64,000 bases of DNA from positions 35,739 to 99,738 of the forward strand of contig JAOZPT010000002.1 of NCBI GenBank assembly GCA_029932605.1. The letters are read 5' to 3'. Made by a program: the position numbers and the translations under genes. The notes beneath the pieces were generated by a model. The model had not been told where the DNA came from and made no database searches. It was given only the letters and a program-made list of their open reading frames with translations. This document shows, piece by piece, positions 250 to 56,615 of the stretch. Numbering within the stretch: position 1 is the stretch's first letter; every line of letters starts with the position of its first letter. The DNA is from Candidatus Zixiibacteriota bacterium. GTDB taxonomy: Bacteria; Zixibacteria; MSB-5A5; UBA10806; 4484-95.

Positions 250-3200
250 CTATTTAATCAAAGCTACTTTTACAATTACATTTTTCTTTATGTCCGGAGA
301 GCTGGCTTCCAGCCTGGCAAAATACACACCTGAAGCAAATTCCGAGCAATCCCAAGAGACTTCGTTTACTCCCCCTCGAGGAGACGAGCCTTTCAGTTCA
401 TCTACCAGTTCACCCGACATATCGAATATCTTAATATTCACCTCGGCTTGGCGATCGACATAATATCTAAAACAAGTCATATCAGTAGCGGGATTAGGAT
501 AATTGTAAACCTCGGCCTCAGGTAAAAAACCCTCAGCAATCGATATATCCTTATCAAAAGCAGGCGATAGATAACATCTATGGCCGATACCGCCACCAGC
601 CATGGGCCAGGGAAGGTTAATGCTGTCAGTTGAGGTTTCAAGATCCCAGACAGAGACGAATCCAGCGCTGTCCATTGCTGCCACCTCGATATCGCCATCA
701 GCGTCAATGTCACTTACTATCGGCGCCATCGTAATCCTTGTTGAGGTTGGCAGAGGAAACCCACCAAGCATATCGCCATGATAATTGTAACACGCCAACC
801 CGCCATCCGGAAGGCAAACAAGTATATCGGGGTTGTTGTCGGCATCAACATCCGCTATCACTGTTTCCACTTTTTGCATTGCCCAAGACCAACTTTGGGG
901 TAAACGAACAGGGAAACCATCAAATAATACCTCCAGATTATTATATACATACACACAGTCATTACCGCCGGTAAAAATTATCTCAGGATAGCCATCGGAA
1001 TTAATGTCAGCCAATGATGGTGGGCCCGGGCTTTCTATATTTATCGTTTTAATCGTCCCCCTCTGGCCATTATAAATACATAGATAATCGCCCACCGTAA
1101 CGACGGCATCATCGAAGCCATCACGGTCGATATCACCACAGACGATACCGATAACATGGCCATCCGGTAAGCTTATAGTATGTTGCTGGTCTGCATCGTT
1201 CTCACCGTGGTTACGAACATAAAGATTGAAATTATCGGAACTGCCATAAACAACAAAGGTCATTTCATCAGATATGGCAATATCTATGGGGATATCATCG
1301 AGATCATCAATAAGAGTAACGTCAATAGTATCTATATCTGAGATATCGATAAGGTGCAAAGAAGAATCATCGAACCCCACAATAAGCTCATCCTTATTGT
1401 CATTGTCGATATCATAAGCTACCGGACCAGCAGTGAGCGATGCTGACAACGTTTCAGATACCAATAAATCTGCCAAGGAATCAAGCGGTGTTCGATCGTA
1501 TCCCTCAAATATATATAACTTGTTCAAAATATCACAGCAGGCTACTTCCAAGGAATCATCACCATCAAAATCACCAGCTATAAGATTGCCTGTGATATTT
1601 GTATCTAATATGGCAAAAACCGGCAAGACATATATTAGCGAATCGCCATCGAAACCGGGAATTAAAAGGCCGGAGCTGGTGTCCATAACCGGTGAACCAT
1701 CGGGATTCACTGCTATTAGAAACTTTCCGACACCGGTTAATATTTCATTCTGGCCATCCGAATCGATATCCAAAACCAATAAGCCATCACAATTATCACC
1801 AAGATCGGGAAATCCCATTACCGGAAAACCATCCTGGTTCCAGCCGATTGAGATATCACAATACATAAGAGTGTCCGTTTCGGTAATACCGGTTATGGAT
1901 ATATGTGTATCAGCACCGAGATTGGAGCGAGTATCAGGATTAGTTGAGGGGGTAAAATCGGTATTATTGCCGATTTTGAAAAAATCGTCATCAGTGCCAT
2001 AACCGCTAAAATAGTTATAATCTCCCAAATCAACTATACCATCTGCCTCCACCACTGAAACGAAACGCCTGTTTGGGTCCCATTGAAGGGTATTTTGCAG
2101 GAAGTTATTACCACCTTCTCCAACATAATCCATATAAGCTACCGCTTCATCGACATGCCATATCAACACACCATCCCCGGGCAACAACCGGTCGTATTCG
2201 CCGGTCAGGACTTTATATAATTCGTTATTATCATAATAAGCCCAACCTGGGCCAAGGATAACACCCGTTGTCGAATCGGCTATAATTGCATTAGGTATAG
2301 ATGGATCATAATGAATATAATCGAAATCAGCATATCTCTGACGATTTTCTATAAGGAAATATTCCATTTCGGAAATCGGCACTTTCACAATTTCATCGTC
2401 GTGATAGTATTGTTCAGCGGCTGAAATAACGACATTCTGTCCATCAGCGATTTCCCTGACAGCAGAAAAGCCCAAATAAGCACGAGACCAGGCATCGGGA
2501 TAAACGGGTAAGACACCTGTTACAAACGGGCCATCGTCCTCGAAAATTATACTTACTGAAAGACCGTTGTTATCCATAAGAGAAAAATCCCCAACCGCAG
2601 TTTGAAAATTGTAGGTGTTATAGAGGTCAACAAGGCCAAGTTGATGCCCGAATTCATGAGCTAAAACAGCGTTTAACACACCAACCCGATTATCCTGGGA
2701 CACAGTCTCCGGAACGATTAAACCATCGGGTATATCCGTCCAGCCGGCACCATTTGAATCGACGCATACCGGTTCAGCCAACCTTATAAAACCTGTCCAG
2801 AGGTCAAATGGTGTGTCATTGATAAAGGCGATATTGTTCTGCTGGTCGCTACCGGCATGAAATAAAATTACCGATTGATAGTCAGAGAAGTTTATTTCAG
2901 GAGCTAATGTATCCGCTAATTTTACAGCATCTTTAAAAAAGCGTTCAAGTCTAACTACGATACTATCCATTCCCCATGAGGTCTCAGATCCATAATAAGA
3001 TATAGGATTAGGCAATCTAAAAGATAATGTTTCTTCCTGAGGATAAATATCCCATTCAAGGTTAAGTGTTTTATCAGAGACAAACCACCAGTAATTATGA
3101 AGAGCCTCCAGGTGTGATGAGAAATACGATGTGTTGTGAGGAGCCGGGTCAAAATCATGCCCTTCTTCCTCCACGAATTGGTCAAGTGAACGAAGGTCAA

Positions 3201-3531
3201 AGTTGCCGTTACCGGTGGTGGTTGGATCATCAGGGTCCTCTGTTTGGAATTCAATCTTTAAAGCAAGTATACGTATTGTATCAGCTTGGATTGCCAGAGT
3301 TATTGGTATGCCGTTTTTGCGTATAGCAGGACCAAACGGCGTTTCTCTCTCCAATCCCAGAAGGTTTCTTTGACAAATCATAGAGCGAAATTGAATTGTC
3401 CCGGGTGGAATATCATTTTGTTGATAGGTGATTATTTTACCGCCTGCCTGCCGAGGTGTTAAAAGCTTATATTCCCCAGATCCTGCTGGAATGACCAACG
3501 AAATCAACAATATTAAAACAAACCAAACCAC
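250..3531 (-). CDS. Secreted M6 (immune inhibitor A-like) zinc metallopeptidase with FG-GAP/VCBS-type repeats and a T9SS C-terminal sorting domain
   Basis: Seen in sequence: N-terminal signal peptide (MVWFVLILLISLVIPAGSG). HEFGHQLGLVDLY fits the HExxHxxGxxD zinc-binding signature of M6 peptidases. Multiple D-x-D-x-DG repeats are present (DIDSDGQNEIL, DIDRDGFDDAVV, DINSDGYPEIIF, DIDADGDIEV), typical of FG-GAP/VCBS. The last ~80 aa (YNYPNP...GVYFARL...VKV) match the type-A T9SS CTD (TIGR04183-like). Family assignments are from established knowledge. Confidence 0.75.
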   Translation of the reverse strand: MVWFVLILLISLVIPAGSGEYKLLTPRQAGGKIITYQQNDIPPGTIQFRSMICQRNLLGLERETPFGPAIRKNGIPITLAIQADTIRILALKIEFQTEDPDDPTTTGNGNFDLRSLDQFVEEEGHDFDPAPHNTSYFSSHLEALHNYWWFVSDKTLNLEWDIYPQEETLSFRLPNPISYYGSETSWGMDSIVVRLERFFKDAVKLADTLAPEINFSDYQSVILFHAGSDQQNNIAFINDTPFDLWTGFIRLAEPVCVDSNGAGWTDIPDGLIVPETVSQDNRVGVLNAVLAHEFGHQLGLVDLYNTYNFQTAVGDFSLMDNNGLSVSIIFEDDGPFVTGVLPVYPDAWSRAYLGFSAVREIADGQNVVISAAEQYYHDDEIVKVPISEMEYFLIENRQRYADFDYIHYDPSIPNAIIADSTTGVILGPGWAYYDNNELYKVLTGEYDRLLPGDGVLIWHVDEAVAYMDYVGEGGNNFLQNTLQWDPNRRFVSVVEADGIVDLGDYNYFSGYGTDDDFFKIGNNTDFTPSTNPDTRSNLGADTHISITGITETDTLMYCDISIGWNQDGFPVMGFPDLGDNCDGLLVLDIDSDGQNEILTGVGKFLIAVNPDGSPVMDTSSGLLIPGFDGDSLIYVLPVFAILDTNITGNLIAGDFDGDDSLEVACCDILNKLYIFEGYDRTPLDSLADLLVSETLSASLTAGPVAYDIDNDNKDELIVGFDDSSLHLIDISDIDTIDVTLIDDLDDIPIDIAISDEMTFVVYGSSDNFNLYVRNHGENDADQQHTISLPDGHVIGIVCGDIDRDGFDDAVVTVGDYLCIYNGQRGTIKTINIESPGPPSLADINSDGYPEIIFTGGNDCVYVYNNLEVLFDGFPVRLPQSWSWAMQKVETVIADVDADNNPDILVCLPDGGLACYNYHGDMLGGFPLPTSTRITMAPIVSDIDADGDIEVAAMDSAGFVSVWDLETSTDSINLPWPMAGGGIGHRCYLSPAFDKDISIAEGFLPEAEVYNYPNPATDMTCFRYYVDRQAEVNIKIFDMSGELVDELKGSSPRGGVNEVSWDCSEFASGVYFARLEASSPDIKKNVIVKVALIK

Positions 3532-3543
3532 TTAATTTCCTTT

Positions 3544-6129
3544 TTAAAAACCTACATTCATAGAAAAACGCATTGTGTTACCCATACGGTTGTATCGTTC
3601 ATCTGAGGCGGGAATATATGAAAAATCGAATCTATAGTTTGTCCACTGCAGCGATGCACCAAGGGTTAAATATCTCTGTTCCCCTATCTCATCATAAATG
3701 TACCCGGCGCGCAACGAAACATAGTTTGAATACCAGTATTCAGCGCCAATATGAGGTATAATCTCTTTGATTTCCGTTTCGATGTCATCGTTGAGGTCAA
3801 CTAATAGCTTATCAGCTTCCCCGATAAATGTAAGCTTGTTAAAAGGTGTATCAACAAGTTTGTAGGCGAAAGCTATTGCCAATTTAGTAGGCAACGGGTC
3901 GGCCTGGTCAGCGTCGATATAAGCGATATCGGGACCAATATTAGTTATAGTTGATGCAAATGTCATTTTCCTATTCATACTATATAAGATGCCACCATCC
4001 ACGGCAAAAGAAAAACCAACTCCCTTGCCTTTCTCCATGATAGCACCGACATCGGCAAGATGGGAATTTATATATCTTGCGGATAAGCCAGCAGACATAT
4101 TTTTTGCCAATTTCGTTCCATAAGATAGTGTAATGGCCAAATCGTAGGAGTTAAACTGGCCAATAACCGTGCCAACTTCATCAGTCCGATCCTGCCGACC
4201 ATACGACATAAAGGTTATGCCCAAGCCAAAAGTCCCCCATTCACTGCTGGGATAGACGATGGAGAAGAAATCATAGTAAAGGTCTTTTGCAAGTTGAACC
4301 AAATAATTCGAATGCATGAAAGTAATCTGTCTTACAGCATGAGCAAGAATATATACCTTGTCGTCCGTGGCAAACCACATCTCTCCCGATTCGGTTTTTA
4401 TCGTATGGGTCGGGGTTTTAGCAAGCTCTGGCTTGGAGAATCTGCTCCAGAGGCCATCGTTATATTCAACCACACCATAGGCGGTGCCTATATAGGCTTT
4501 CTTTGAAGAATGTACAGCTATGGAAAGAATCGGAGCACCAAGAGCATTGGCATAAACCATGACACTCCGCCCCTGGTCTATCATTTCCCCTTCCTCAAGA
4601 TTGTTGTATTCCCTGATTAGTCTGGCAAGATGTTGGACTTTTTCTGGGGAAATTCCGGGTAAAAACTCCTTGGCAATTTCCTCTGCAGAAATCATTTTTT
4701 CAGGTTTATATTCCTTATAGCCGAAGTGAAAGAATGTTTTACCGTTAAAAAAGATAACTCCCTTTTGGGTTCCTATCCAAACATTTTTATCTTTGGCTGC
4801 CAGTGAAAGAATTTTACCTTTAAAAGCCAATCTGAAGGGGAGTTTAATCTTCTGACCAACCGTTAAATCCCCTTGAATACCGTTAAAACTCATTATCTCG
4901 CTTTTAATACCCTCTAAATCAATTACAGCCATTGCCCGATAGAAAATATTTATGATGTTATCGATATCCTCGCCAACCGTGACCTCATGCTCAACATAGT
5001 TCCGCCACTCATGGCCATCATAGTAGAAAAGGTCATTTTCATAAGCTGCCCAGATGTTGCGATCATTGGTTGCTGCAATATTAGTAATGTAACCCGATGG
5101 AGGATTTTGCTTGGAAGAATATTTTTTGATCTTGACCCCGTTAAAGTAAACAACCCCTTTAGCGGTGCCAATAACAATGCTTTTCCTTCCTATCCGGCCC
5201 AAAGCCGTGATCTTTAAGGAAGGCAAACTATCCTCTAAACCATACGATTTCCATCTATTCCGCCTGGGATCAAAACGATAGAAACCGTTATCGGTACCGG
5301 TATACAACATACCGCCATGAGATTCCAAACAATTAATTTTTGAACCTAAGATCAAGTCGTAAGGTATCTCGATTTTATTTATTGACCTTTTCCTGATCGC
5401 CTGGTCAAAACCAAAAGCAATCTTGTCAAGCTCCAAATTTGTCATAAGGCTATCGGTTAACCCTTCACGTATTATCTTCTCAAGCGCATTAAAACCATCC
5501 CTATCTATCTTAAGATCATTCCAGGCGTTTCTAAGCTTATCAAAACCAAAAGATATTTCCTCTGAATACTGGTAATCATCGGGGATAAATGGTTGAAGTA
5601 TTTGTTGAAGAGTGTCTATTTTTTCGATCGGGATGTCGTTGTTCAATCTGGTAAGTTTGTCATAATAGTTTTTAATCTGCTCCTCTTCCAACCCTGTATA
5701 GCGAAGCAGTATATTTTTTATCGTTTTCCCTTCCTCTAACGTATGAGTAGTTCCCCTTTTCCATGACTCTCCATTCCATCGTGATATATGTCCATTAATG
5801 ATAGCCCAGACATCATACTGGCGGTAGTTAACCTCAGGAATATCGTTTTTAACGAGAGCGATATTCTCAATTTTTTCTCCCTTATCGGTGCGAATCTCAA
5901 TCCAGCTTGGTGATAAAGGATACCTGCCCAAACCAGCAGGATTCCAGTGGGTTGCTGTGGCATCATCCGAAATAGCGACAAACGTTTCCCCCATACCGCC
6001 GGCTCTGGCTCCGGGAGCAATAAGCAGAAACGGCACCGCGGTTTGAGAAACCTGGCCAAAGACACTTATAACTAATATTGCTATCATTATTGGTACCCAT
6101 GCCAGCACCTTTTTCATATTATCCTCCAA
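3544..6129 (-). CDS. PorV/PorQ-family T9SS outer-membrane beta-barrel with a large inserted beta-propeller (two-component-regulator-propeller-like repeats)
   Basis: Seen in sequence: signal peptide, then VPFLLIAPGARAGGMGETFVAISDDATATHWNPAGLG, which matches the N-terminal signature of PorV/PorQ (and UPF0164) barrels. The C-terminal ~330 aa alternate hydrophobic residues in a beta-strand pattern and end in -NVGF, as outer-membrane barrels do. Between these lies ~480 aa with repeated G-T-x-x-G-(V/F)-x-x-(F/Y)-(N/D)-G-x-x-W motifs (GTDNGFYRFDPRRNRWKSY, VWIGTQKGVIFFNGKTFF, AYIGTAYGVVEYNDGLWSRF) resembling Reg_prop repeats. This middle-domain assignment is an inference. Confidence 0.6.
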   Translation of the reverse strand: MEDNMKKVLAWVPIMIAILVISVFGQVSQTAVPFLLIAPGARAGGMGETFVAISDDATATHWNPAGLGRYPLSPSWIEIRTDKGEKIENIALVKNDIPEVNYRQYDVWAIINGHISRWNGESWKRGTTHTLEEGKTIKNILLRYTGLEEEQIKNYYDKLTRLNNDIPIEKIDTLQQILQPFIPDDYQYSEEISFGFDKLRNAWNDLKIDRDGFNALEKIIREGLTDSLMTNLELDKIAFGFDQAIRKRSINKIEIPYDLILGSKINCLESHGGMLYTGTDNGFYRFDPRRNRWKSYGLEDSLPSLKITALGRIGRKSIVIGTAKGVVYFNGVKIKKYSSKQNPPSGYITNIAATNDRNIWAAYENDLFYYDGHEWRNYVEHEVTVGEDIDNIINIFYRAMAVIDLEGIKSEIMSFNGIQGDLTVGQKIKLPFRLAFKGKILSLAAKDKNVWIGTQKGVIFFNGKTFFHFGYKEYKPEKMISAEEIAKEFLPGISPEKVQHLARLIREYNNLEEGEMIDQGRSVMVYANALGAPILSIAVHSSKKAYIGTAYGVVEYNDGLWSRFSKPELAKTPTHTIKTESGEMWFATDDKVYILAHAVRQITFMHSNYLVQLAKDLYYDFFSIVYPSSEWGTFGLGITFMSYGRQDRTDEVGTVIGQFNSYDLAITLSYGTKLAKNMSAGLSARYINSHLADVGAIMEKGKGVGFSFAVDGGILYSMNRKMTFASTITNIGPDIAYIDADQADPLPTKLAIAFAYKLVDTPFNKLTFIGEADKLLVDLNDDIETEIKEIIPHIGAEYWYSNYVSLRAGYIYDEIGEQRYLTLGASLQWTNYRFDFSYIPASDERYNRMGNTMRFSMNVGF

Positions 6130-6261
6130 AGCTAATTAACCACTTCATTAATTTATCGTCAACAAAATGCTCGTTAAAAGCTTAAAACCTGTATCTTCTT
6201 TTTACAACCTTGCTCAAGCCAATATTGTCAATTTAATATTTTAAATCAACCCTTTTAACCA

Positions 6262-9200
6262 CTAACGCAAAATCACTAATTTCGACTGAAAACTCGACTT
6301 CCTGCGAACGCCATCAACACCTGTACCGATTGCCTCAATTTTATAGATATAAACTCCGCTGGCAAGTTTATCACCATCATCATCCCTAAGATAGTAAGGA
6401 ACATATTTGTATCCCCCGGTGGTGTATGTCGTTCCGGTCAAATCGAAACTTTTAACTTTCCTTCCCGATAAGGAAAATATCTTAAGCGATACTTTTTCGG
6501 CGGAACCGGTCAGCATATATTGAAAAACGGTCGAGTCAGCTCTGACAACAGGGTTGGGATAGTTCATCACTCTCTGTATAGAGAAATACTCATCCTGGTA
6601 TACCCGGATAACTGCTGTAAACAGGGAGGAGTTATTGTAATTGTCCCAGGCTTTTAATGAAATTTGATGTTCGCCCTCAGGGATATCCGATATCTCAAAA
6701 GTTGCCGAGCCCTGTTGCCAATCCCCCTTATCGAATATGAAATTATTTGTGATATCCTCTGAATAAATATCACCATCATCCAATTTCACCACAATTCCAT
6801 GCCCCATTGAACCGGTCATATTGATACCATGGAGGTCAAATAAACGGGTTTCAAACACGGCATTAGCAGAGACAGCGGTTAGACCACTGTTCAACATCTT
6901 ACCGTTATATAAAATCTCTATGGTTGGACCGATAGAATCGGCCTCGGCAGAAATCCCGCCAGCGATTGATATCGAATCTACAACCCCCGAACCATCTACA
7001 AAACCGTTCTCGAAATAAACATAAATTCTGGCTCTGCTTCCGCCATAGGTGATATCCTTGGGTATAAAAAACGATGTCGAGAACTGGCCATTGCTGACCT
7101 CGGCTGGACCGTTGAAAATAGTTGGCCCGGGAAGAATGTAATCAACATATATCGGCGGATATAAGGGAACACCGGCGTAATTAGTCAAGGCTTTATGCCT
7201 GTTAATTAAAGCATCTTTGACAAGCACCCAGACAGTGCCGTTGAAATCTGACATAAACAAACTATCCTGATAGATCTCGCCGGATATAGAATCAATTGTT
7301 AAACCCCTTAAGGAATCCGGCCTGTAGGTAAAATGCGCTTCAAGCGAGGGTTTTCCAGCAATCAATGCCGGATCGCTAAAAATTACATATCCCCTATCGT
7401 TGTCAATACTGCCTCTGAGAAACTTTGCTATATAAAGTGCCCCACCAAAAGATGTTGAATCACCGAACAACAGTTGATCAAATATCTCCCTATTTAAAGC
7501 GGAGTTTTGTCCAGCATTGACCGGCCTTGTGGCTCCGATAGAGGCGATAGCCCCGCCGTTGGGGTAACGAATAAAATCCTCGGACATCCCCTGTTCATTG
7601 GGGTCATCGAAAAACCCGACCGAACATGAAGCGGCTAATATCATAGGCAGTTTATCATGATTGTGAAGGAGTGGTATATCTTCAATCCTTCTAAATAAAA
7701 TCTCATGAGCCCACAATCCTTTGTTGCCATGACCGATCCAGTTGACTATCAGTCCACCATTATTAATAGCACTAATAAGAGCCTCTCTGGCATCAGGTTT
7801 TGTCCTGCCGGCGCGAATTGGATACTCCAGCATATAAATTTTTTGCACCTCGATATTTTTGGGCACATGTAATTCAGCTAAAGCTTCGGCTTGATTTGTA
7901 TGGAACGCCTCTCTCATACCATCACCAAAATTGTCATCAGCGGCGATGATGATGTTATTGCGCCACTTTCCTATAGTCGGATTGGATTCATAGTTGATAA
8001 TTTTCTCGACAACAATATCCATCTGGTCAGTACTGTTCACCGGTATGCGACCAATTATCATATCTATACTGCCGGAATCATCATAGTCCAAATCACCAAA
8101 CTGACCAAAATAGATATAATTATCATCGGAAGCTGAGGCTGTTGTACTGTTGGGTTTGGGGGCTTCAAACGGTGGTATGAACATTCCCCCGCTTGAGCCA
8201 AGATTGTTTCGGTAATCGAAATGCCCATCACCTACCAGCATTACATACCCCGGTGGTGCACCGCTCCAGTTTTCATAGGCGTATTTCAAGAAATCTCTTA
8301 TGGCCATCGGATCAAACAAACCCCAGCTAAACTGATTATATATATCTTCAATATCCACCACCATAGCGGTTATACCAGGAGAAACACTTTCCCTATGAGC
8401 AGCCAGCTCCAGCGACTGCTGATAGAATTGCCCATGGGTGATGATTATGTAATCAGCCCTGTTCGAGGCCGATTTCAGATCAACAGGTTCATAAAGGTCA
8501 AAACTGCTGACCGTCTTATAACGTGATGAATTAGCAAGATAATACAAACGCCTCAAGTAGTTATAATGTTGAAATCTCAATTCAGAACCAGATAATTCAG
8601 CATTGACAATCAGGCAGACACTGTCAGGATATGAGATATCAAGAAGTATGTAATCCGAAGGAACATTGGTTAACCTGTATTCTATCAAACCCGGAGAATC
8701 AGGGCTTGAAAACATAAGTTTATTGTCTAATACATACAGTAAACGGTTGTAGTGAACATCGATATAATCAAGGTAAAATTTGGCAGTATCAGTAACCGAT
8801 ATTATATTAAAACCACTCCTAAAATTTGTAGAATTATAAAGAAAGATACCATTGTAACTCGATATCAATCCAGCCTCGACATTATTTACCAAAAGATTTT
8901 TCATTCCTCCACTTGCTTTAACTACAACCAGCGCTTCACTGCCAGTCACAACATCGAACAGTTGAACATTCGATGTGAAAGTCGTATCCCAACCCCAGTA
9001 CCATTCGAAATAATTATAGTAATCAGTGCTTGTACCCTTTTGATAAAATTTAACTTCCCTTTCTTCATGTATAAAGTCGTCAAAACTTGTCACAGCATAA
9101 TCGTACGGTTCCTGAGGCGAACCATCAACTTCAGCCCATCTTTTAGGAGAAGAGGCAAAAGAACCGTTATATGTTAACCAGTAGACGTTCTTCGAGGTAT

Positions 9201-10233
9201 AATGGTTATGCCGAAAAACAAACCTACTATCATCAGGGCTGTATTCGAACCTGTCGGTAGCTTCGGCATAAAACAGTATCTGGTCTCCACCGTCAAATTC
9301 GCCATCATCCTCCCCTATTACATGAATTGGTATCTCGTACAGTTGGGGTCTTGGTTCATCGTTGTCAAACGGTAACTCGGCTCCCCCCCCGTAAAATATT
9401 CTTATCTGTCGGGGGTCAACCTCATCGATCTCAACTCCAGCAGTTGAGAGTTCATAACGACCGATTTTATAAACTCCAGCATCGGTCACCTCAAGTTTTA
9501 CCCAAACCAACGATGAATCGAAAACAGATTGACTTATCTGGGTTTTTGAGGGAATCGGTGGCCAATAGATACGCCAGTTTTTAGCTATATCATAATTGGC
9601 TATTATCCGAGGAAGAATGTTTTCGAATACCTGACCAACTGGCCGCGGAGGATAATAACCACCTTTTTTCGCGCTGTTAAAATCAACCCTTACCGTTATG
9701 GTTTCACCTTTATATAACATTCCATTTTCTATCTTAGCTGCCGCTATTCCGATTTTTATGACTCTTAAACCGCGTAACATCTCTTCTCCGAAGATAAAGG
9801 CGGTATGTAAAGGCCAGTTTTTCTCAGATGTGATCCGGTTAGAGGCCCTGGATGAATAATCCTGCGAAGGTAATTCAACATCAAAATTGGGAACATCCGA
9901 TTTTCCAATGTTATTGTAATGTTGGCTTAAGACTGTTACTGTTGGCTTAGAATCATAGGGAACACCTATCGGAATAAACTTTAAAGGCAAAAGAGGTTGA
10001 CCCTGACAACGATTTTGTGCAGTCCGGGATATCTGTGGATATTTGAAATTTTCAGGATAACCGTTAATACTGGTCAGAACGACATCGGGAACAAAATATG
10101 TAAACGTAATTCCATTTTCATCAGAAACCAATATCTTTACGTCACTATCAAATATCTTTTCAGCTTGAGCAAAATTAAAGAATACAATTAATAAAAAAGT
10201 GGTAATTATCGCATTTAAGGCGAGCCTCATCAA
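6262..10233 (-). CDS. Gingipain-like C25 cysteine peptidase with a T9SS C-terminal sorting domain
   Basis: Seen in sequence: signal peptide (MMRLALNAIITTFLLIVFFNFAQA). A catalytic His context (NWIGHGNKGLWAHE) and a catalytic Cys context (ILAASCSVGFFDD) typical of peptidase family C25. A C-terminal NYPNPV...KIFSLSGRKV...GVYIYKIEA block matches the T9SS CTD. At 1323 aa, the size fits a propeptide plus catalytic domain plus Ig-like domains plus CTD. Confidence 0.8.
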   Translation of the reverse strand: MMRLALNAIITTFLLIVFFNFAQAEKIFDSDVKILVSDENGITFTYFVPDVVLTSINGYPENFKYPQISRTAQNRCQGQPLLPLKFIPIGVPYDSKPTVTVLSQHYNNIGKSDVPNFDVELPSQDYSSRASNRITSEKNWPLHTAFIFGEEMLRGLRVIKIGIAAAKIENGMLYKGETITVRVDFNSAKKGGYYPPRPVGQVFENILPRIIANYDIAKNWRIYWPPIPSKTQISQSVFDSSLVWVKLEVTDAGVYKIGRYELSTAGVEIDEVDPRQIRIFYGGGAELPFDNDEPRPQLYEIPIHVIGEDDGEFDGGDQILFYAEATDRFEYSPDDSRFVFRHNHYTSKNVYWLTYNGSFASSPKRWAEVDGSPQEPYDYAVTSFDDFIHEEREVKFYQKGTSTDYYNYFEWYWGWDTTFTSNVQLFDVVTGSEALVVVKASGGMKNLLVNNVEAGLISSYNGIFLYNSTNFRSGFNIISVTDTAKFYLDYIDVHYNRLLYVLDNKLMFSSPDSPGLIEYRLTNVPSDYILLDISYPDSVCLIVNAELSGSELRFQHYNYLRRLYYLANSSRYKTVSSFDLYEPVDLKSASNRADYIIITHGQFYQQSLELAAHRESVSPGITAMVVDIEDIYNQFSWGLFDPMAIRDFLKYAYENWSGAPPGYVMLVGDGHFDYRNNLGSSGGMFIPPFEAPKPNSTTASASDDNYIYFGQFGDLDYDDSGSIDMIIGRIPVNSTDQMDIVVEKIINYESNPTIGKWRNNIIIAADDNFGDGMREAFHTNQAEALAELHVPKNIEVQKIYMLEYPIRAGRTKPDAREALISAINNGGLIVNWIGHGNKGLWAHEILFRRIEDIPLLHNHDKLPMILAASCSVGFFDDPNEQGMSEDFIRYPNGGAIASIGATRPVNAGQNSALNREIFDQLLFGDSTSFGGALYIAKFLRGSIDNDRGYVIFSDPALIAGKPSLEAHFTYRPDSLRGLTIDSISGEIYQDSLFMSDFNGTVWVLVKDALINRHKALTNYAGVPLYPPIYVDYILPGPTIFNGPAEVSNGQFSTSFFIPKDITYGGSRARIYVYFENGFVDGSGVVDSISIAGGISAEADSIGPTIEILYNGKMLNSGLTAVSANAVFETRLFDLHGINMTGSMGHGIVVKLDDGDIYSEDITNNFIFDKGDWQQGSATFEISDIPEGEHQISLKAWDNYNNSSLFTAVIRVYQDEYFSIQRVMNYPNPVVRADSTVFQYMLTGSAEKVSLKIFSLSGRKVKSFDLTGTTYTTGGYKYVPYYLRDDDGDKLASGVYIYKIEAIGTGVDGVRRKSSFQSKLVILR

Positions 10234-19227: not shown

Positions 19228-19514
19228 TATAATAGGAAATATTAATCTACAAACCAGTCAAAGTCAATTTTAATGTAGTTACAATTAAGATATAGTGAAC
19301 CTTTAATAGTTGACCCTTTCCAGAGTTAATTAAAAACTGGCTTTTTCTGAGATAGGTGCGAGGCTGGAAAACATCGCCTATTAGGGTGGTGTTTTTGAAA
19401 ACTGTAATTTTGAGATTTTTTAGTGGAACTCCTCGTATAATTCTAACTGACTTAAAAAATTATTGACATAATTAAATATAGTGGCACAGCATTTTTGTGT
19501 TTGAAAAATAGTCA

Positions 19515-19718
19515 GTGAACTTTGTTATGATAAAAGCAAAATTACCTAAAGCCATTATTGGTAATTATTGGCTAGTTATTGTTGTATTCCTTTTTACCAC
19601 TCTATTTCAAGAAGTATCAGCTCAGTGGCAAGTTACTGGAGCTATAATCAGAGACCCTATTAGTCCTATTGACGACGAGATTATTATCCCTGACCAGTAT
19701 TGTATTACTAAACATTAG
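19515..19718 (+). CDS. Candidate small secreted protein, possibly frameshifted with the overlapping ORF 19669-19869
   Basis: Seen in sequence: GTG/ATG start, then a signal-peptide-like IIGNYWLVIVVFLFTTLFQEVSAQ. The +1 frame continues through a Cys-rich stretch (CGGFYCVWEGGC) up to the lpxB stop. No homology support. Confidence 0.25.
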   Translation: MNFVMIKAKLPKAIIGNYWLVIVVFLFTTLFQEVSAQWQVTGAIIRDPISPIDDEIIIPDQYCITKH

Positions 19719-19870
19719 TATCTTGGATGGTGGAAGATTGGGTACTCCAGTAATATTTTCAGATAATTTTGCGATTTCTCCTGATTTGTGTGGCGGATTT
19801 TATTGTGTCTGGGAAGGAGGTTGTATATTTTTACAACATGAAGTAAGAAATTTGCCTTTAATGGCCTGAT

Positions 19871-31624: not shown

Positions 31625-31886
31625 CATTATTTTATTTTCTAGAACAATGTAAAATTATCATCAGACAGATAATTATAAAATGCTATGTTGATAACAAGCA
31701 TTAGATTTTATAAAGGCTCTTTTATTACTGGCGTATCCCCAAATCATACCTAAATTGAGACTTTGAAAAATACAACCATCTTTCTGTAACTTATATAAAA
31801 ATATTGACAACAATATATTCTGGCTTATATTATCCAAAATTATAAAATGGGAATCTTAAAACAAATATCCCGAAAGGCGTATCAGC

Positions 31887-32531
31887 GTGTTAAAGGTTAA
31901 TTACCTTCTATTAACAATGAAAACCGACCGTGAAGTCAAACTGGGAGTTTCTCCTTTATCATTACAGGTTACCTCGGAATATCAGAAACTATTGAACCAA
32001 TCAGGTTACACCCCATCGGGAGGTAATTACCCTTTGATTCAATATAAGGTTATTCGGGGAGCACCGATCATCGTGGCTGTTAATGAGGGATGCGATGTTC
32101 TCTGGAATATTTATGATTGCTTGGATGAAATAAACGAAAGAAGCACATGGGAGATTACCGAAAAACGGATTATCGATAAAAAAGTAAACCTTGGGCCGAC
32201 CGATAAGTGGGTGCGATATCGATTCTTAACACCATGGTTGACTATTCCCGCTGAGGAACTTGGCAAAAAGACTCAAAATAACTTACAACAGAAAAACAAA
32301 ATCCTTACTCCTGTGTTGGAAAATAACTTTCTGGGTATAGCCCGTAATTTCGATATCCCTGTTGAAGATGAAATAAATATCAATTTAAATGTCAGGGATA
32401 ATTTCATTATTCAGAAAGACACTGGTGTAGCTGGCTTTTTCGGTACATTCTATGCAAATTTCGAATTGCCACCATTTTTGGGACTTGGTAGGTCGATTTC
32501 CCGTGGTTTTGGTACGATTAAACATAATTAA
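31887..32531 (+). CDS. Cas6-like RAMP endoribonuclease homolog (orphan; no CRISPR array or other cas genes in the window)
   Basis: Seen in sequence: the C-terminal GLGRSISRGFGTIKH matches the Cas6 glycine-rich loop consensus G-h-G-x5-G-h-G, positioned ~10 aa from the C-terminus as in Cas6 (compare P. furiosus GVGSKTALGFGRI). Size is 214 aa. Flanked by ~250 bp AT-rich spacers. Inference. Confidence 0.4.
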   Translation: MLKVNYLLLTMKTDREVKLGVSPLSLQVTSEYQKLLNQSGYTPSGGNYPLIQYKVIRGAPIIVAVNEGCDVLWNIYDCLDEINERSTWEITEKRIIDKKVNLGPTDKWVRYRFLTPWLTIPAEELGKKTQNNLQQKNKILTPVLENNFLGIARNFDIPVEDEININLNVRDNFIIQKDTGVAGFFGTFYANFELPPFLGLGRSISRGFGTIKHN

Positions 32532-32704
32532 ATAGAATATTTTATAAAACATGGTTTAATCTAGTTTTTTATGGTTATTATTGTGGCTGACATGGAGATA
32601 ATATCACCCACGTTAAAAAACACCATCAGGATTGACTTATCAGATAAGTGGTATTATGATTTTTTTTTACTCAGCAAATAAAAAATACTCTTTTTTTAAT
32701 AATC

Positions 32705-32750
32705 TTGACATATTTTTTATTTTGACATATAAATTGTCTTCGTTAAATAT
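32705..32750 (+). promoter_or_regulatory. Putative grpE promoter with tandem TTGACATAT direct repeats
   Basis: Seen in sequence: ttgacatat at 32705-32713 and 32722-32730. The second TTGACA, a 17-nt spacer and AAATAT would form a sigma70-like promoter ~20 nt upstream of the grpE SD. No CIRCE inverted repeat was found. Confidence 0.3.
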
Positions 32751-32766
32751 TCATAATTGAGGTAAG

Positions 32767-42347: not shown

Positions 42348-43616
42348 TTATTTCAACAACATCATCTTGCGAAAGATGGCCTGGTCAGGGGTTTTAAGAC
42401 TGTAAATATATAAACCCGAGGAAACCTTATCGCCATTTTTATCCGTGCCATCCCACCAGAGCGATCGACGATAATTAACTGAACCATCAAATAAAACCTT
42501 AACCAGTTTGCCGACAATATCGTAAATTTCGATCCGGGCATATCCCGGCTTTTCAAGGATAAACTCGATTAACGTTCGGTTGTTAAATGGATTTGGGTAA
42601 TTTTGATAAAGAGTAGTCGATGAAGGTATAAGGGGTTGATTGTCAAAGACACCGGATGAAAAATCATAAATATAAATGCCATCTTCAGTGCCGGCAAAGA
42701 GTCTACCGTTGGCATCAATTTCAAGACTGTAAACATTGAGGTTATCTAAGCTGTCGTTAAAGGGTGAAAAAGTGGCACCTGCATCTGTAGAGATAAGCAC
42801 TCCACCGTTGGAAACTGACCCTACAAATAACCTGCCAGCAATCTGCGGGTCACAGGCAATTGGTACATTATCAACAGTGCTTGTGGGTGTATATTCCCAA
42901 TCCAGACCGCCGTTGAAGGATATAGCTACATAAGCATAGCATGAAACATAAAGGGTCTCCGGACCGTTGGGTTCATACTCGATTCTGTTAGGGTTGTAAT
43001 CCTCAAGGTTAAAAAGCCCCCCTATATCTTCCCAGCTGTTGGCGAAATCGGTTGTATGAGCTACAAAGGTTTCACCCACTGCGTAAGCCTCTAATTGATT
43101 GGTGCCATCACCTTTAATATCGATGATGTTCAGGTCGGGAAGACCTATATTAGCGCTTGAGTAGGTTTGAAAACTATCCTGTGATTTCAGTATACCATCC
43201 TCGAAACAGATATACATGAAACCAGGGTTGACCGGGTCAAACCCCAGACGGCGAGGATTTAACATATAACTTCTTGGCCACCAACCATTACCGTTATCAA
43301 TCGAATAATGGATCCCATCCGACCATGAACCACCAGCTAAAAGTGCCCATAGTGTATCATTATCATGAGGGTCGTAAGATAAAAACGGAACGTTGAGATT
43401 AACAAATTGACGATCCCAGGATTGACCGCTGTTGAAGCTTACAAATAATCCACTATCTGTTCCAGCGCAGATATATTGAGGATTAATAGGGTCGATCTCT
43501 ATGGACAATACCCGCATATCGGAAAGCCCCAGAAACTCCCAGTAGTTAGCACTGGCAGAGACCGCCAGTAAAGCTATTAATAAAACAACTATTAATATAG
43601 TTTTTCTGATCATCAC
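42348..43616 (-). CDS. BNR/Asp-box repeat beta-propeller protein with a T9SS C-terminal sorting domain
   Basis: Seen in sequence: signal peptide, repeated S-x-D-x-G-x-x-W/F Asp-box motifs (FNSGQSW, SIDNGNGW, TDFANSW, SFNGGLDW, STDAGATF). The C-terminal YQNYPNPFNNRTLIEF...SGLYIYSLKT block matches the T9SS CTD. Confidence 0.7.
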   Translation of the reverse strand: MMIRKTILIVVLLIALLAVSASANYWEFLGLSDMRVLSIEIDPINPQYICAGTDSGLFVSFNSGQSWDRQFVNLNVPFLSYDPHDNDTLWALLAGGSWSDGIHYSIDNGNGWWPRSYMLNPRRLGFDPVNPGFMYICFEDGILKSQDSFQTYSSANIGLPDLNIIDIKGDGTNQLEAYAVGETFVAHTTDFANSWEDIGGLFNLEDYNPNRIEYEPNGPETLYVSCYAYVAISFNGGLDWEYTPTSTVDNVPIACDPQIAGRLFVGSVSNGGVLISTDAGATFSPFNDSLDNLNVYSLEIDANGRLFAGTEDGIYIYDFSSGVFDNQPLIPSSTTLYQNYPNPFNNRTLIEFILEKPGYARIEIYDIVGKLVKVLFDGSVNYRRSLWWDGTDKNGDKVSSGLYIYSLKTPDQAIFRKMMLLK

Positions 43617-48523: not shown

Positions 48524-48649
48524 TCACCTTTTCTTTTTGTGGAGGTGACAATACTTTGCAGGTGGTGTTACCATACGTTTACATCTTTTCCCCGTCGATG
48601 TCTTTCCTGCACAACGGACTTTTCTCCTGGGCTTCTTTTTAGTTGGCAT
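48524..48649 (-). CDS. Small basic Cys/His-rich protein (41 aa; putative zinc-ribbon-like), MPTKKKPRRKVRCAGKTSTGKRCKRMVTPPAKYCHLHKKKR
   Basis: Seen in sequence: ATG preceded by a perfect AAGGAGG SD with a 6-nt spacer. Cysteine/histidine pattern C-x9-C-x10-CH-x-H. An upstream promoter and downstream terminator were identified. Below the ORF-track length cutoff. Confidence 0.55.
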   Translation of the reverse strand: MPTKKKPRRKVRCAGKTSTGKRCKRMVTPPAKYCHLHKKKR

Positions 48650-53140: not shown

Positions 53141-54141
53141 GGTTCTTACACCAAGATGTTCTTTACTTGCTTTTTTTACCCGTCGTATTGTTTTTTATAT
53201 ATATCGTTGGCTCAAAGTTGTCCAAAAAACGTCTTTCCAAACTAGGCGGTTTACAGATAAAACAGATGGCTCAACGTAGTGTCTCAGAAAGCCGCCGCAG
53301 GTTTAAATTTGCCTTAACAATGGTTGGCTTAACCTTGATGATTGTAGCTCTAGCTCGCCCTCAATATGGCTCTGAGCTTATCAAGGTTAAATCTACCGGA
53401 ACCGAGGTCATGATTGCTCTTGATGTATCCCTGTCGATGCTGGCAGGTGATTTTTATCCCTCTCGGTTAGATAAAGCCAAACGCCAGATATCAACGGTTA
53501 TTGATAATCTGCCCGGGGAAAGCATCGGCCTTATAGTGTTTTCCGGACAGGCTTTTGTGCAATGCCCGCTGACAGTGGACCACAGCGCCCTCAGGATGTT
53601 TCTTGATATCGTTGATGTGGGAACTATATCGGATACCGGCACTGATATAGAAAAAGCAATTGAAAAAGCCGCTGAGAGTTTTTCAGAGGAAAGCAAAGCG
53701 GACAAAGTGCTTGTAATATTCACCGATGGTGAGACCCAGGAAGGCGATCCCGTTTCGACGGCTAAGAAATATAAAAGCCTGTTTAAGATTTATACCGTTG
53801 GAGTTGGCACTCCTAAAGGTGAACCGATACCCATTCGTGGTGCTGATGGTTCAATTGAGGGCTACAAGAAAGACAAAAACGGAGAACTCGTAATATCTAG
53901 ATTAAATGAAGACCTTCTCATGGAAATCGCCACAGCTTCAGGTGGTATGGCTTATCGTTCCACACCGGGTGAACAGGAGCTGAAGTCTTTAGTAAAATGT
54001 ATTAAAGGTATGAAGAAAGGTGAAACCGAGAGTAATTTCCGCCGTCTTTATGAGGAAAAATTCCAGTATTTCTTAATACCGGGGATTTTATTTATCAGCC
54101 TGGCAATGTTTATCGGTCAGAGAGGAAAACATGCGTTGTAA
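53137..54141 (+). CDS. batB: vWA domain protein BatB
   Basis: Seen in sequence: TM helices, a vWA MIDAS motif (DVSLSM) and a C-terminal TM. 334 aa, with a 4-nt overlap. Confidence 0.8.
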   Translation: MRFLHQDVLYLLFLPVVLFFIYIVGSKLSKKRLSKLGGLQIKQMAQRSVSESRRRFKFALTMVGLTLMIVALARPQYGSELIKVKSTGTEVMIALDVSLSMLAGDFYPSRLDKAKRQISTVIDNLPGESIGLIVFSGQAFVQCPLTVDHSALRMFLDIVDVGTISDTGTDIEKAIEKAAESFSEESKADKVLVIFTDGETQEGDPVSTAKKYKSLFKIYTVGVGTPKGEPIPIRGADGSIEGYKKDKNGELVISRLNEDLLMEIATASGGMAYRSTPGEQELKSLVKCIKGMKKGETESNFRRLYEEKFQYFLIPGILFISLAMFIGQRGKHAL

Positions 54142-54844
54142 TATCGTTGCCCTTTTAATGATAATACTTGTGTCATTATCTTATGGTGACCAGTATCGAG
54201 ACTACATGAATAAGGGACAAAAACTGTATAACTCTGAGGATTATCAAACCGCCACCGAACAATTCCGCCAGGCGGAGGTGCTAAAACCTGATGACCCTAT
54301 CGCATCGTTTAATCTTGGTACAGCTCTTTATAAAAGTCAAGATTACAGTAAAGCCGTCGAAAAATTTTCACAATCTGCCGCAACAGCCGAAAAAAAACTA
54401 AAAAATGAATCATACTATAACCTGGGAAATTCTCAATATAGAAACCAAGAATACGCCGGGGCTTTACAGTCGTATAAAAACGCTCTGATAAACGACCCCA
54501 CCAATTTTGACGCTAAATACAATTTCGAACTGTCAAAGATACGTCTAAAACAACAGCAACAACAGCAAAATCAACAAAAACAGCAAAAAGAGGATGAAAA
54601 TAAAAAAGACCAGGAACAACAACGGCAACAGCAACAAAAAGAACAGGAACAACAACAGAAGTCACAAAATCAACAACAAAATCAAAAGCAGGAACAACAG
54701 AAACAACAACCCAAACCGAAAAAAGGCGAGATGACAGAACAGGAGGCAAAAGAGCTTTTAGAGGCATTTGAAAAGGATGAAAAACAGATTCAAAAAGAGC
54801 TTAAGAAATTTAAAATTAAATCCGGTTCGGCTCGCGATTGGTAG
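54131..54844 (+). CDS. batC: TPR-repeat protein BatC with a Gln-rich low-complexity tail
   Basis: Seen in sequence: TPR-like repeats (YNLGNSQYRNQEYAGALQSYKNAL), then a ~55-residue Q/E/K-rich segment. Confidence 0.7.
   Translation: MRCNIVALLMIILVSLSYGDQYRDYMNKGQKLYNSEDYQTATEQFRQAEVLKPDDPIASFNLGTALYKSQDYSKAVEKFSQSAATAEKKLKNESYYNLGNSQYRNQEYAGALQSYKNALINDPTNFDAKYNFELSKIRLKQQQQQQNQQKQQKEDENKKDQEQQRQQQQKEQEQQQKSQNQQQNQKQEQQKQQPKPKKGEMTEQEAKELLEAFEKDEKQIQKELKKFKIKSGSARDW
54549..54712 (+). repeat. CAA/CAG (Gln codon) low-complexity microsatellite-like tract inside batC
   Basis: Seen in sequence: the run caacagcaacaacagcaaaatcaacaaaaacagcaaaaag..., encoding QQQQQQNQQKQQ...QQQKSQNQQQNQKQEQQKQQ. Confidence 0.7.
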
Positions 54845-56615
54845 TTTTATAACCCTGGCTTTAATCTGTCCGCATGCCATAAGCCAGGATATAAATATAA
54901 CCGCCAATGTCGACCGCAATATCGTCGAGCTCGGCGAAACGATTAATCTCTCCATTTCTGTATCCGGTTCGGTAAGGTCCGTGTCAAAACCATCGCTACC
55001 CGATTTATCAGATTTTGATGTTTATTCCTCCGGGACAAGCTCCAATATTTCGATTGCCCCCGGTGCTACTAGTTATCAAACCGATTACAGCTATGTTTTG
55101 GTCCCCCGAAAAGTTGGAACTTATGTTATTGGTTCAGCAAAGGTTAAATACAAAGGCAGGGAGTATTCCACTCAACCAATTCAGATAAAGGTTAATCCTC
55201 CCACTAAACGAATCTCGCCATCTCAACCTGGTAGAAAACAACAGCATAACATACCCGCAAATGAAAACCAGGATTTCTTTATCGAACAGGCTGTGGACAA
55301 CAACCAGCCGTACGTAGGTGAACAGGTGACGATGGTTTTTAGGTTTTATCAGGGCCAGAACCTTTATGAGCAGCCTAGCCTCGAATGGCCTGATTATAAA
55401 GGTTTCTGGGTCGAGGACCTTCCTCCCCAAAAATCCTATAACAAATATATCAATGGCAGAAACTACAGGGTTATTGAAATACGTAAAGCTCTTTTCCCAA
55501 CAGTTTCCGGAAAGATAATAATAGAACCAGCAGTACTTACTATTCCCCCCGATGCATTTAGCTTCTTTTTCGACAGTGATCCATTTAATATGTTTTCCAA
55601 TCGTCGAAGGAGAAGTCATACCCAAAAGGTCCTGCGAACAAACAAGATCGTTTTAAATATTAAGCCATTGCCCGAAGAAAACAAACCTGCCTCTTTTACG
55701 GGAGCAGTAGGCAAATTCAATTTAAAAATATCTCTTGATAAGGATACCGTTGAGGTTGACCAACCAGTCACTTTGAAGGCGGTTTTAAATGGTGCCGGTA
55801 ATATCAAGAAACTTCCCGGAATTAATATACCCAAACTTGAAAATTTCCGACTCTATGATTCTGGCAGTAACGAAAACATCTCGAAAAACAACTATACGGT
55901 CTCGGGCTCAAAAGTTTTCGAATGGGTATTGATTCCCACCGCCCCCGGTGAGTACGACCTTCCCGAGCTCAGCTTCAGCTATTTTGACCTGTTGAAAAAA
56001 AAATACAAAACCCTGACCAAAAAACCAGGAAGCATATATGTTAAACCATCATCGATAACTTCTTTTTCTCCAGAGTTAATAACAAAAAATATCATCCCGG
56101 GCGCAAAAACAAGTTTGAATTATATCGTTACCGATTTTCCCGAGGATTTGCCTGGCCAACCCCTTTATAAGAATAAAATTTTGTGGATGCTCCAACTTCT
56201 TCCTCTGGTCTGGCTTCTTTCTTTAGCTATCTATACCAATCGACGCAATAAATTCAAAACAGACATTGCTTATGCCAGGCGAAGGCTTGCCACAAAGGCC
56301 GCTAAAAAAGCTTTGAATAAAGCAAAAGAGGGGTTAAACAAACCTGAACAATTTTACAGCCTGGTCTATAATGCAATTACTGGTTTTATATCAGATAAGC
56401 TTAATATCAACACCGCTGGCCTTACAAATATACAGATAATCGAGCTTTTGAAAAATACTAAAAAAGAAAGCGATACCCTCGATGACCTATTGAATTTTCT
56501 CAATCTTTGCGACGCTGGTAAATTTTCACCAGCTAAACCATCCCAGGAACAAATGAGGGAATTCTATTTTAAAGCGGAAAAGATCCTTGAAATGCTCGAA
56601 CGAGACTTGAAATGA
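54768..56615 (+). CDS. batD: BatD-like oxygen-tolerance protein
   Basis: Seen in sequence: 615 aa, a secreted domain plus a C-terminal TM helix (ILWMLQLLPLVWLLSLAIYT) and a cytoplasmic tail. Operon position fits BatD. The tracked start overlaps batC by 77 nt, so the true start is uncertain. Confidence 0.7.
   Translation: MKRMKNRFKKSLRNLKLNPVRLAIGSFITLALICPHAISQDINITANVDRNIVELGETINLSISVSGSVRSVSKPSLPDLSDFDVYSSGTSSNISIAPGATSYQTDYSYVLVPRKVGTYVIGSAKVKYKGREYSTQPIQIKVNPPTKRISPSQPGRKQQHNIPANENQDFFIEQAVDNNQPYVGEQVTMVFRFYQGQNLYEQPSLEWPDYKGFWVEDLPPQKSYNKYINGRNYRVIEIRKALFPTVSGKIIIEPAVLTIPPDAFSFFFDSDPFNMFSNRRRRSHTQKVLRTNKIVLNIKPLPEENKPASFTGAVGKFNLKISLDKDTVEVDQPVTLKAVLNGAGNIKKLPGINIPKLENFRLYDSGSNENISKNNYTVSGSKVFEWVLIPTAPGEYDLPELSFSYFDLLKKKYKTLTKKPGSIYVKPSSITSFSPELITKNIIPGAKTSLNYIVTDFPEDLPGQPLYKNKILWMLQLLPLVWLLSLAIYTNRRNKFKTDIAYARRRLATKAAKKALNKAKEGLNKPEQFYSLVYNAITGFISDKLNINTAGLTNIQIIELLKNTKKESDTLDDLLNFLNLCDAGKFSPAKPSQEQMREFYFKAEKILEMLERDLK

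Follow-up and report, generated by a model that had tools for sequence, protein, structure and literature searches.

To our knowledge, the RAMP proteins (Cas5, Cas6 and Cas7) are generally thought to be confined to clustered regularly interspaced short palindromic repeat (CRISPR)-Cas systems and to the multi-gene modules derived from them. Beyond CRISPR-cas loci, genes for most Cas proteins are rare, with Cas4 as the exception (PMC5704561), and reviews of the cas genes that do lie elsewhere list solo-Cas4 (PMC5704561), the Cas1 of casposons (PMC6452270), derived array-less modules such as the Streptomyces I-E plus STAND systems and HRAMP (PMC8730458), and transposon-borne modules. These reviews treat Cas1, Cas4, Cas5/7/8 modules and effectors and mention neither a solo Cas6 nor a single-gene housekeeping RAMP, and no precedent for a Cas6 that is solo, orphan or inactive came up in the literature consulted. 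Here we describe a cas6b-like gene that stands by itself in a 64,000-nucleotide stretch of Candidatus Zixiibacteriota DNA (contig JAOZPT010000002.1, positions 35,739 to 99,738; this whole stretch is hereafter the window, and coordinates count from its first letter). Like solo-Cas4, casposon Cas1 and the array-less modules, its 214-amino-acid product is a Cas-family protein encoded outside a CRISPR-cas locus and presumably re-used.

The type I-B Cas6b of Methanococcus maripaludis (PDB 4Z7K/4Z7L; Pfam PF17955 plus PF17262) is the natural point of comparison. An H38A/H40A double mutant of this enzyme is almost without cleavage activity and the activity of Y47A is reduced (PMC3479195), and the glycine-rich loop of Cas6 is implicated in positioning of the CRISPR RNA (crRNA) (PMC6546412). 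The window protein and its relatives, which form a clade of their own, are like Cas6b in size, in the tandem RRM fold, in the YPxxQYK and YxFxTPW motifs and in the glycine-rich loop, but are without H38/H40, the Arg-Gly of helix 1 and an equivalent of Tyr47. Nor does the clade gene lie beside cas8b-cas7-cas5-cas3-cas1-cas2-cas4 or an array of 37-nucleotide repeats; it occupies instead a fixed housekeeping position. Because both the catalytic residues and the association with CRISPR arrays and cas genes are missing, the protein is filed here as Cas6b-derived and not as a crRNA endonuclease. It shares the absence of a catalytic His in the usual place with enzymes such as the Cas6 of Sulfolobus solfataricus (PMC3652601); those enzymes process crRNA in organisms with CRISPR-Cas systems, whereas the clade locus has neither a CRISPR context nor an evident substitute active site.

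Descent from Cas6b and loss of its catalytic residues

The protein is a Cas6 by descent, and its membership in the Cas6b family (PF17955/PF17262) lies far beyond chance. Pfam Cas6b_C matches residues 105-213 with 86.7 bits (cut-off 39.4), and Cas6b_N matches with 40.4 bits (cut-off 25) over residues 47-99 only, equivalent to profile positions 50-103 of 105. The PADLOC Cas6 and Cas6b models reach E values of ~1e-42 (4.7e-42 for Cas6b), with an alignment that likewise begins only at residue 47; NCBIfam returned no match for the protein. A profile of 42 relatives finds M. maripaludis Cas6b (4Z7K) at E=3.3e-39, and the AlphaFold2 model (mean pLDDT 92.8, pTM 0.88) consists of two beta-alpha-beta units, the tandem ferredoxin-like/RRM arrangement, with 4Z7K/4Z7L as its top Foldseek matches (E 8e-17, TM 0.74) and Csf5 and other Cas6 structures next in rank. 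Thus, the original prediction, which had called the protein Cas6-like, credited it with a perfect glycine-rich loop (G-h-G-x5-G-h-G, at residues 199-209) and named a duplicated ferredoxin/RRM fold as the structure to look for, agrees on each of these points with the database matches, the loop and the predicted fold.

Homologues of this kind are almost confined to Zixibacteria assemblies. A protein search recovered ~50 clusters of 208-253 amino acids at 40-85% identity, and those with a source name are labelled Zixibacteria; all other matches of that search lie at or below ~41% identity. HMMER, run exhaustively over 1.84 billion representatives, returned only three from the clade, at 348, 275 and 224 bits, with the next match at 173 bits. 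When 42 clade members and 72 canonical Cas6b proteins were placed in one neighbour-joining tree, the clade was monophyletic (42/42) and sat on a long stem. A protein identical to that of the window is on record in 'candidate division Zixibacteria bacterium 4484_95' (GCA_002085375.1).

The fate of the catalytic residues was read from a joint alignment of the same 42 and 72 proteins. In the canonical set, the helix-1 L-R-G motif has Arg in 100% and Gly in 97% of sequences, the two His of the LL-H-x-H motif are present in 99% and 100%, and a Tyr two residues ahead of an invariant Y-P is found in 97%; the H-x-H and Tyr columns are H38/H40 and Y47 of M. maripaludis Cas6b. Among the clade members, R-G is replaced by Ser (88%) and Leu (69%), the H-x-H columns hold gaps or residues other than His (His in 0% and 2%), and the Tyr47 equivalent has become Gly. 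The HNH of 4Z7K (38-40) falls, in the profile alignment, on the loop of residues 37-47 of the window protein, and this would-be active-site loop varies in length and sequence between subclades, with a 12-residue insertion in those assigned to tier 2. A check for the H-x-H motif found it in 120 other collected Cas6b sequences and in no clade member, and it is missing from all of the 50-plus clade sequences examined. A few scattered proteins outside the clade have one His left or none, with the R-G motif still there.

The loss of these motifs accounts for the late start, at residue 47, of the Pfam and PADLOC alignments, and for a score about half that of canonical Cas6b (144 versus 291 bits). 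The only His in the window protein is H213, within the C-terminus ...GLGRSISRGFGTIKHN. A single His near the C-terminus had led to the suggestion that the catalytic residues might be atypical; this extends to the whole clade, which is without H-x-H, the RG motif and the Tyr47 equivalent, all of them present in 97-100% of CRISPR-linked Cas6b.

The segments that remain are those held in common with the canonical family. YPxxQYK, YxFxTPW, N-F..P and the glycine-rich loop GxGKSVSRGFGT.K are invariant in the clade and in canonical Cas6b alike, and in and after the loop G201, R206, G207, F208, G209, T210 and K212 are invariant in the 42 clade members and common to canonical Cas6b. Other invariant residues are specific to the clade (G20, R57, W73, E92, R94, I96, R112, L114 and Q176). 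The clade proteins are moderately basic, with a median pI of 8.8 and a median net charge of +3 compared with +7 in canonical Cas6b.

The cas6b-like gene is under strong purifying selection, with a ratio of nonsynonymous to synonymous substitution rates (dN/dS) of ~0.1. Where dS is measurable, in pairs among the loci L006, L007 and L015, the ratio is 0.10-0.13; in most other pairs, at 54-88% amino-acid identity, dS is saturated, including pairs of 86% identity with a dN of only 0.085. Furthermore, length is constant at 212-214 amino acids in the tier 1 members, and 34 alignment columns are invariant.

Genomic setting and expression

No CRISPR array was detected in the window by Tandem Repeats Finder, a direct-repeat search or a k-mer chain scan, and the window has no Rfam match at gathering thresholds and no tRNA genes. 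When all open reading frames (ORFs) of the window were compared by BLASTP with those of 70 canonical Cas6b loci, the cas6b-like gene was the sole cas homologue, the Cas6b ORF being the only recurrent match and found in 70 loci. PADLOC, run on every ORF of the window, gave so many UvrD/GajB-like matches that it is uninformative on cas genes. The survey was extended to 37 clade loci (L001-L019 and L093-L110), among which there is some redundancy, and to L090 and L092, with flanks of up to 10 kb on each side; many of these loci are short, and ~18 have 5-10 kb on at least one side. Within the flanks examined, 0 of the 37 loci has an array or a cas homologue beyond the cas6b-like gene itself, and L090 and L092 have no cas Pfam family among their called genes. 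An identical scan of canonical Cas6b loci found arrays in 36 of 70 and in 35 of 62, or 71 of 132 (54%). In Methanolobus bombayensis, for instance, the control locus L061 has the gene order cas8b-cas7b-cas5b-cas3-cas6b-cas1-cas2-cas4 and then an array of 70 repeats. The idea that an array or mini-array lies hidden close to the window gene was also considered and was rejected, as the scans were empty in the window and in the 37 clade loci.

The canonical arrays are built on a strikingly uniform 37-nucleotide repeat, ...ATCCAnnAAAACAAGGATTGAAAC (its ending also given as ...GGATTGAAAC), on the cas6b strand, and this Cas6b repeat and its 8-nucleotide AUUGAAAC tag match those described in PMC3479195. 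The arrays beside PF17262-type cas6b genes (L021-L089 and L112-L172) share a near-identical 24-nucleotide 3' half of the repeat (ATCCAnnAAAACAAGGATTGAAAC), while the 5' 13 nucleotides vary freely, and they always lie on the cas6b strand; the hosts that share this repeat half are only very distantly related (Methanosarcinales, Methanomicrobiales, Clostridia, Bacteroidia and Thermodesulfobacteriota).

Across ~30 clade loci, synteny is stable and of a housekeeping character. Most tier 1 loci have a kdsB-pyrG-(135-amino-acid ORF)-kdsA block upstream, often with a divergent gene in between, which is an archaeal-type gatE (NCBIfam NF003107, 540 bits against a cut-off of 456). This gatE is the divergent neighbour, at a distance of 107-210 bp, in 11 loci drawn from both subclades. 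In tier 2, gltX adjoins the cas6b-like gene or lies within 3 kb of it, with or without gatE in between, and seven loci have gltX so placed. The downstream genes vary within the clade (2-oxoacid:ferredoxin oxidoreductase, urocanase, acyl-CoA dehydrogenase and DUF401 among them), and no sign of a mobile element or a defence island was seen in the clade neighbourhoods. GatE is far commoner in Zixibacteria than the cas6b-like gene: over 120 clusters reach at least 48% identity. A cas6b-like neighbour is missing from two further GatE loci, one in the complete 3.7-Mb Zixibacteria genome CP070742.1 and the other belonging to an NCBI-named Zixibacteria GatE; in CP070742.1, gltX is still near gatE. In at least eight tier 1 loci the gatE adjacency has been lost, and in the window organism both gatE and gltX are absent from the 64 kb. 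As gatE occurs without the cas6b-like gene and adjacencies have been lost, the pattern fits an inherited insertion site, and the simplest reading of the gene order is that a single insertion brought cas6b next to gatE in a sub-lineage's ancestor, and that the gene has for the most part remained at that site.

The GatE genes themselves are of some interest. Full-length archaeal-type GatE (625-633 amino acids) is encoded in L005 (8014-9894, minus strand) and L092 (7908-9809, minus strand), and likewise in L009, L013, L094, L095, L097-L100 and L105, often near gltX; no gatD was seen in the flanks of these loci. Descriptions of GatDE usually treat it as archaeal, and the wide presence of GatE in a bacterial phylum may merit a look.

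The window organism is the exception to the common gene order. Its cas6b-like gene lies between a PMT_2-family glycosyltransferase gene on the 5' side and grpE on the 3' side, the latter followed by genes for a ParA-like ATPase, rmuC, dnaK and uvrD. On the original prediction's account, the gene sits between a glycosyltransferase and grpE with no array or other cas gene nearby, and this description stands after the repeat scans and the BLASTP comparison. The two AT-rich spacers of ~250 bp said to bracket the gene are also present (262 bp at 26.7% GC upstream and 235 bp at 24.3% GC downstream, against a window average of 40.4%), but the emphasis placed on them does not hold up, and they were rejected as a special feature because they are typical for this stretch of the genome: intergenic spacers over ~31.6-40 kb are mostly 125-280 bp long with 17-35% GC, each with promoter-like sites. 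In the downstream spacer there is no Rfam match, no conservation across subclades and no conserved small ORF.

Positions of the gene, of the segments of its product discussed here and of the flanking elements are collected in the table.

Table. Features of the cas6b-like locus in the window
Feature	Position	Strand	Details
Sigma-70-type promoter of the cas6b-like gene	31804..31833	+	-35 TTGACA 31804-31809; -10 TATATT 31826-31831 or TATTAT 31828-31833
Predicted 5' untranslated region	31840..31886	+	Possible hairpin GGGA 31849-31852 / TCCC 31868-31871, read from the sequence
Cas6b-like coding sequence	31887..32531	+	214 amino acids, GTG start, stop codon within range
Residues 24-26 (L-S-L)	31956..31964	+	Counterpart of the canonical helix-1 L-R-G in the joint alignment
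Residues 37-47 (NQSGYTPSGGN), loop between helix 1 and strand 2	31995..32027	+	Site of the canonical H-x-H/Tyr47; without His or Tyr at equivalent positions
Glycine-rich loop GLGRSISRGFG, residues 199-209	32481..32513	+	Motif G-h-G-x5-G-h-G, Cas6 RNA-positioning element
Downstream AT-rich spacer	32532..32766	.	Promoter-like sites for grpE at 32632-32660 and 32722-32751

The GTG start is taken to be right because the segment YLLL (residues 6-9), which is kept in at least 98% of orthologues, precedes the first ATG. The promoter matches the sigma-70 consensus at 11 of 12 positions. Upstream of 11 orthologues, whose neighbour genes differ, TTGACA never varies and follows an A-rich tract, and all orthologues examined have TTGACA and a -10 box ~75-85 nucleotides 5' of the start codon. 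Since the gene has its own conserved promoter irrespective of which gene is next to it, it constitutes a single transcription unit. The possible hairpin in the 5' untranslated region (UTR) abuts a Shine-Dalgarno-like GAAAGG (31872-31877), and autoregulation through this predicted hairpin is conceivable. The start of the 5' UTR is conserved among the closest subclade only, with the consensus ATAATAAAAyGGGGG..TAAAGC. A 17-codon ORF (MGILKQISRKAYQRVKG, 31847-31900) opens at an upstream ATG (31847) and runs across the GTG start codon of the cas6b-like gene in a different frame; it is probably without significance, to judge from the ATG, which is not kept in L009 or L013.

Several further features of the window were noted in passing. 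The genes lpxA, lpxB, kdtA and lpxK lie 9-15 kb upstream of the cas6b-like gene on the opposite strand, in a lipid A/Kdo cluster (lpxK, kdtA, DUF374, lpxB, GFO/IDH oxidoreductase and lpxA) that surrounds a gap of 643 bp (19228-19870, 33% GC) running from the DUF374 gene to lpxB and containing only short ORFs of up to 67 amino acids. A type IX secretion-related cluster occupies 250-10233 on the minus strand and includes a Por_Secre_tail FG-GAP protein (1093 amino acids), an 861-amino-acid PorV-like protein and a 1323-amino-acid peptidase C25 (gingipain-like) protein; another Por_Secre_tail protein is encoded at 42348-43616 on the minus strand, and similar type IX cargo proteins are found near the cas6b-like genes of the relatives L005 and L090. 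The segment 47952-49301 is a 1.35-kb stretch of ~30% GC with no ORF of 60 amino acids or more. Its only Rfam match is a sub-threshold, chance SNORD46 (27.7 bits against a gathering score of 40), and within it a 41-amino-acid, very basic and Cys-rich ORF, MPTKKKPRRKVRCAGKTSTGKRCKRMVTPPAKYCHLHKKKR, lies at 48524-48649 on the minus strand. Finally, a low-complexity A/C-rich repeat of CAA/CAG-like units at 54540-54742, in the ORFs 54131-54844 and 54768-56615, encodes a Gln/Lys/Glu-rich linker and is the sole sizeable tandem-repeat signal in the window; it is not CRISPR-like.

A proposed role outside CRISPR and its alternatives

The account we favour, with moderate confidence, is that the protein is an exapted Cas6b derivative which works outside CRISPR, binds RNA and does not cleave it by the canonical mechanism. 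Co-option is favoured because the catalytic residues are lost, the synteny is stable, the gene has its own conserved promoter and purifying selection is strong; of the two possibilities that the original prediction left side by side, a distant array or a co-opted role, these four observations argue for the latter, and the distant array fares less well. RNA binding and a lack of canonical cleavage are inferred and most likely. The ancestor of one Zixibacteria sub-lineage would have gained a type I-B cas6b, which would have gone to fixation at the side of gatE and gltX, adjoining the kdsB-pyrG-kdsA block, at a place with neither an array nor other cas genes. There, the tandem RRM fold, the glycine-rich loop and the other shared motifs would have been kept as the canonical cleavage residues were lost, and the gene would be transcribed alone from its own strong sigma-70 promoter. 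Its product would then most likely act as a sequence- or structure-specific RNA binder, for example as a regulator, a chaperone or a ribonucleoprotein subunit for a chromosomal RNA. Csy4 H29A, an engineered cleavage-dead Cas6 of the Cas6f family, is without its catalytic His and remains a tight and specific binder of its RNA hairpin. Similar behaviour is predicted for the clade protein, although Csy4 H29A is artificial and belongs to another Cas6 family.

Several observations weigh against this account. A missing His is no proof of missing cleavage, as Lys, Arg or Tyr takes the place of His in some Cas6 enzymes (PMC3652601, PMC6546412). Distant arrays, or a type III system without a cas6 of its own, may exist elsewhere in the genome, and a Zixibacteria metagenome-assembled genome is reported to contain type III systems (PMC13477220). 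Furthermore, the search for an RNA partner near the gene came back empty. A weight matrix of 26 canonical 37-nucleotide repeats, scored against shuffled controls, found no repeat-like site that outscored them, either in the window or among 11 clade loci, the best match lying at window position 45320 with a score of 11.1 against a null maximum of 11.7. No flanking non-coding element is conserved across subclades, the promoter alone being shared, and Rfam returned nothing around the cas6b-like gene at E<=1. Regions upstream and downstream are alike among close relatives only, the promoter excepted; no non-coding k-mer is common across subclades, and the small ORFs downstream of the clade genes are not homologous to one another. 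A conserved flanking non-coding RNA or small ORF was rejected on the basis of these flank, k-mer and Rfam comparisons. The 5' UTR (AAAATGGGAATCTTAAAAC) was tried as a look-alike of the repeat 3' end and was dropped, as it did no better than shuffled controls in the weight matrix.

The alternative to which some of these points lend themselves is that the protein is a maturase acting in trans, which cleaves, or binds and delivers, pre-crRNA from distant arrays, for example those of a type III or type I system without a cas6 of its own, by means of an atypical active site without His. Every RNA-binding motif of Cas6b is kept; PMC3652601 and PMC6546412 describe Cas6 enzymes that cleave without His and active sites that are notoriously variable; cas6 is often shared by several effector modules, as a fixed 'attractor' gene (PMC6452270); and type III genes are reported from one Zixibacteria metagenome-assembled genome (PMC13477220). 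We nevertheless regard this alternative as unlikely, given that the losses extend beyond His to the Arg-Gly motif and the equivalent of Tyr47, and that the would-be active-site loop differs in length and sequence between subclades. One chromosomal position has been kept through divergence to ~40% identity, unlike the patchy and mobile distribution of CRISPR-Cas systems, and arrays are absent from all 37 clade loci, within flanks of up to 10 kb on each side, as against their presence in about half of the canonical ones. Nor does any site in the window resemble the cognate 37-nucleotide repeat more than shuffled sequence does. The RRM scaffold could instead have been re-used without RNA, for example in binding a protein or a small molecule, and the lower net charge of the clade and its own set of invariant residues may be read in this way; this is improbable, however, because the most strongly conserved segments are those common to RNA-binding Cas6b, above all the glycine-rich loop.

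A role linked to tRNA(Glu/Gln), in which the protein would act with GatE and GluRS, for instance by binding or presenting tRNA(Gln), draws on the 11 loci of both subclades where a true GatE is the divergent neighbour and on the seven with gltX within 3 kb. It seems more improbable still, as GatE is much more widespread in Zixibacteria than the cas6b-like gene, two other GatE loci lack such a neighbour, and the gatE adjacency is lost from at least eight tier 1 loci, with both genes missing from the window. At the far end stands the view that the gene is a decaying, functionless remnant of a lost type I-B system. The lost catalytic residues and the absence of all partners nearby would be expected of a remnant, but a reading frame intact at 212-214 amino acids in dozens of lineages, the 34 invariant columns, a dN/dS of ~0.1 with saturated dS and a conserved promoter would not, and the selection analysis effectively refutes it.

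A stronger form of the exaptation account holds that this is the first RAMP/Cas6 to have been fully domesticated as a single-gene, cleavage-dead RNA-binding factor acting on housekeeping RNA, vertically inherited and possibly tied to tRNA(Gln) and GatE-GluRS; we put this forward tentatively, and think the balance somewhat against it. The label 'CRISPR-associated endonuclease Cas6', which NCBI attaches to some orthologues, is probably misleading for the clade, and its presence in an annotation is no evidence of a host CRISPR system or of nuclease activity. If the protein is indeed an exapted Cas6b, the list of Cas proteins recruited to other roles would extend to a crRNA-processing nuclease, and the clade would supply a natural parallel to the 'dead Cas6' proteins that synthetic biology uses as engineered RNA binders. 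Should the domestication prove real, Cas6 scaffolds would be recruitable from immunity into core RNA biology. The locus would also point to a new RNA-protein interaction in a poorly studied candidate phylum.

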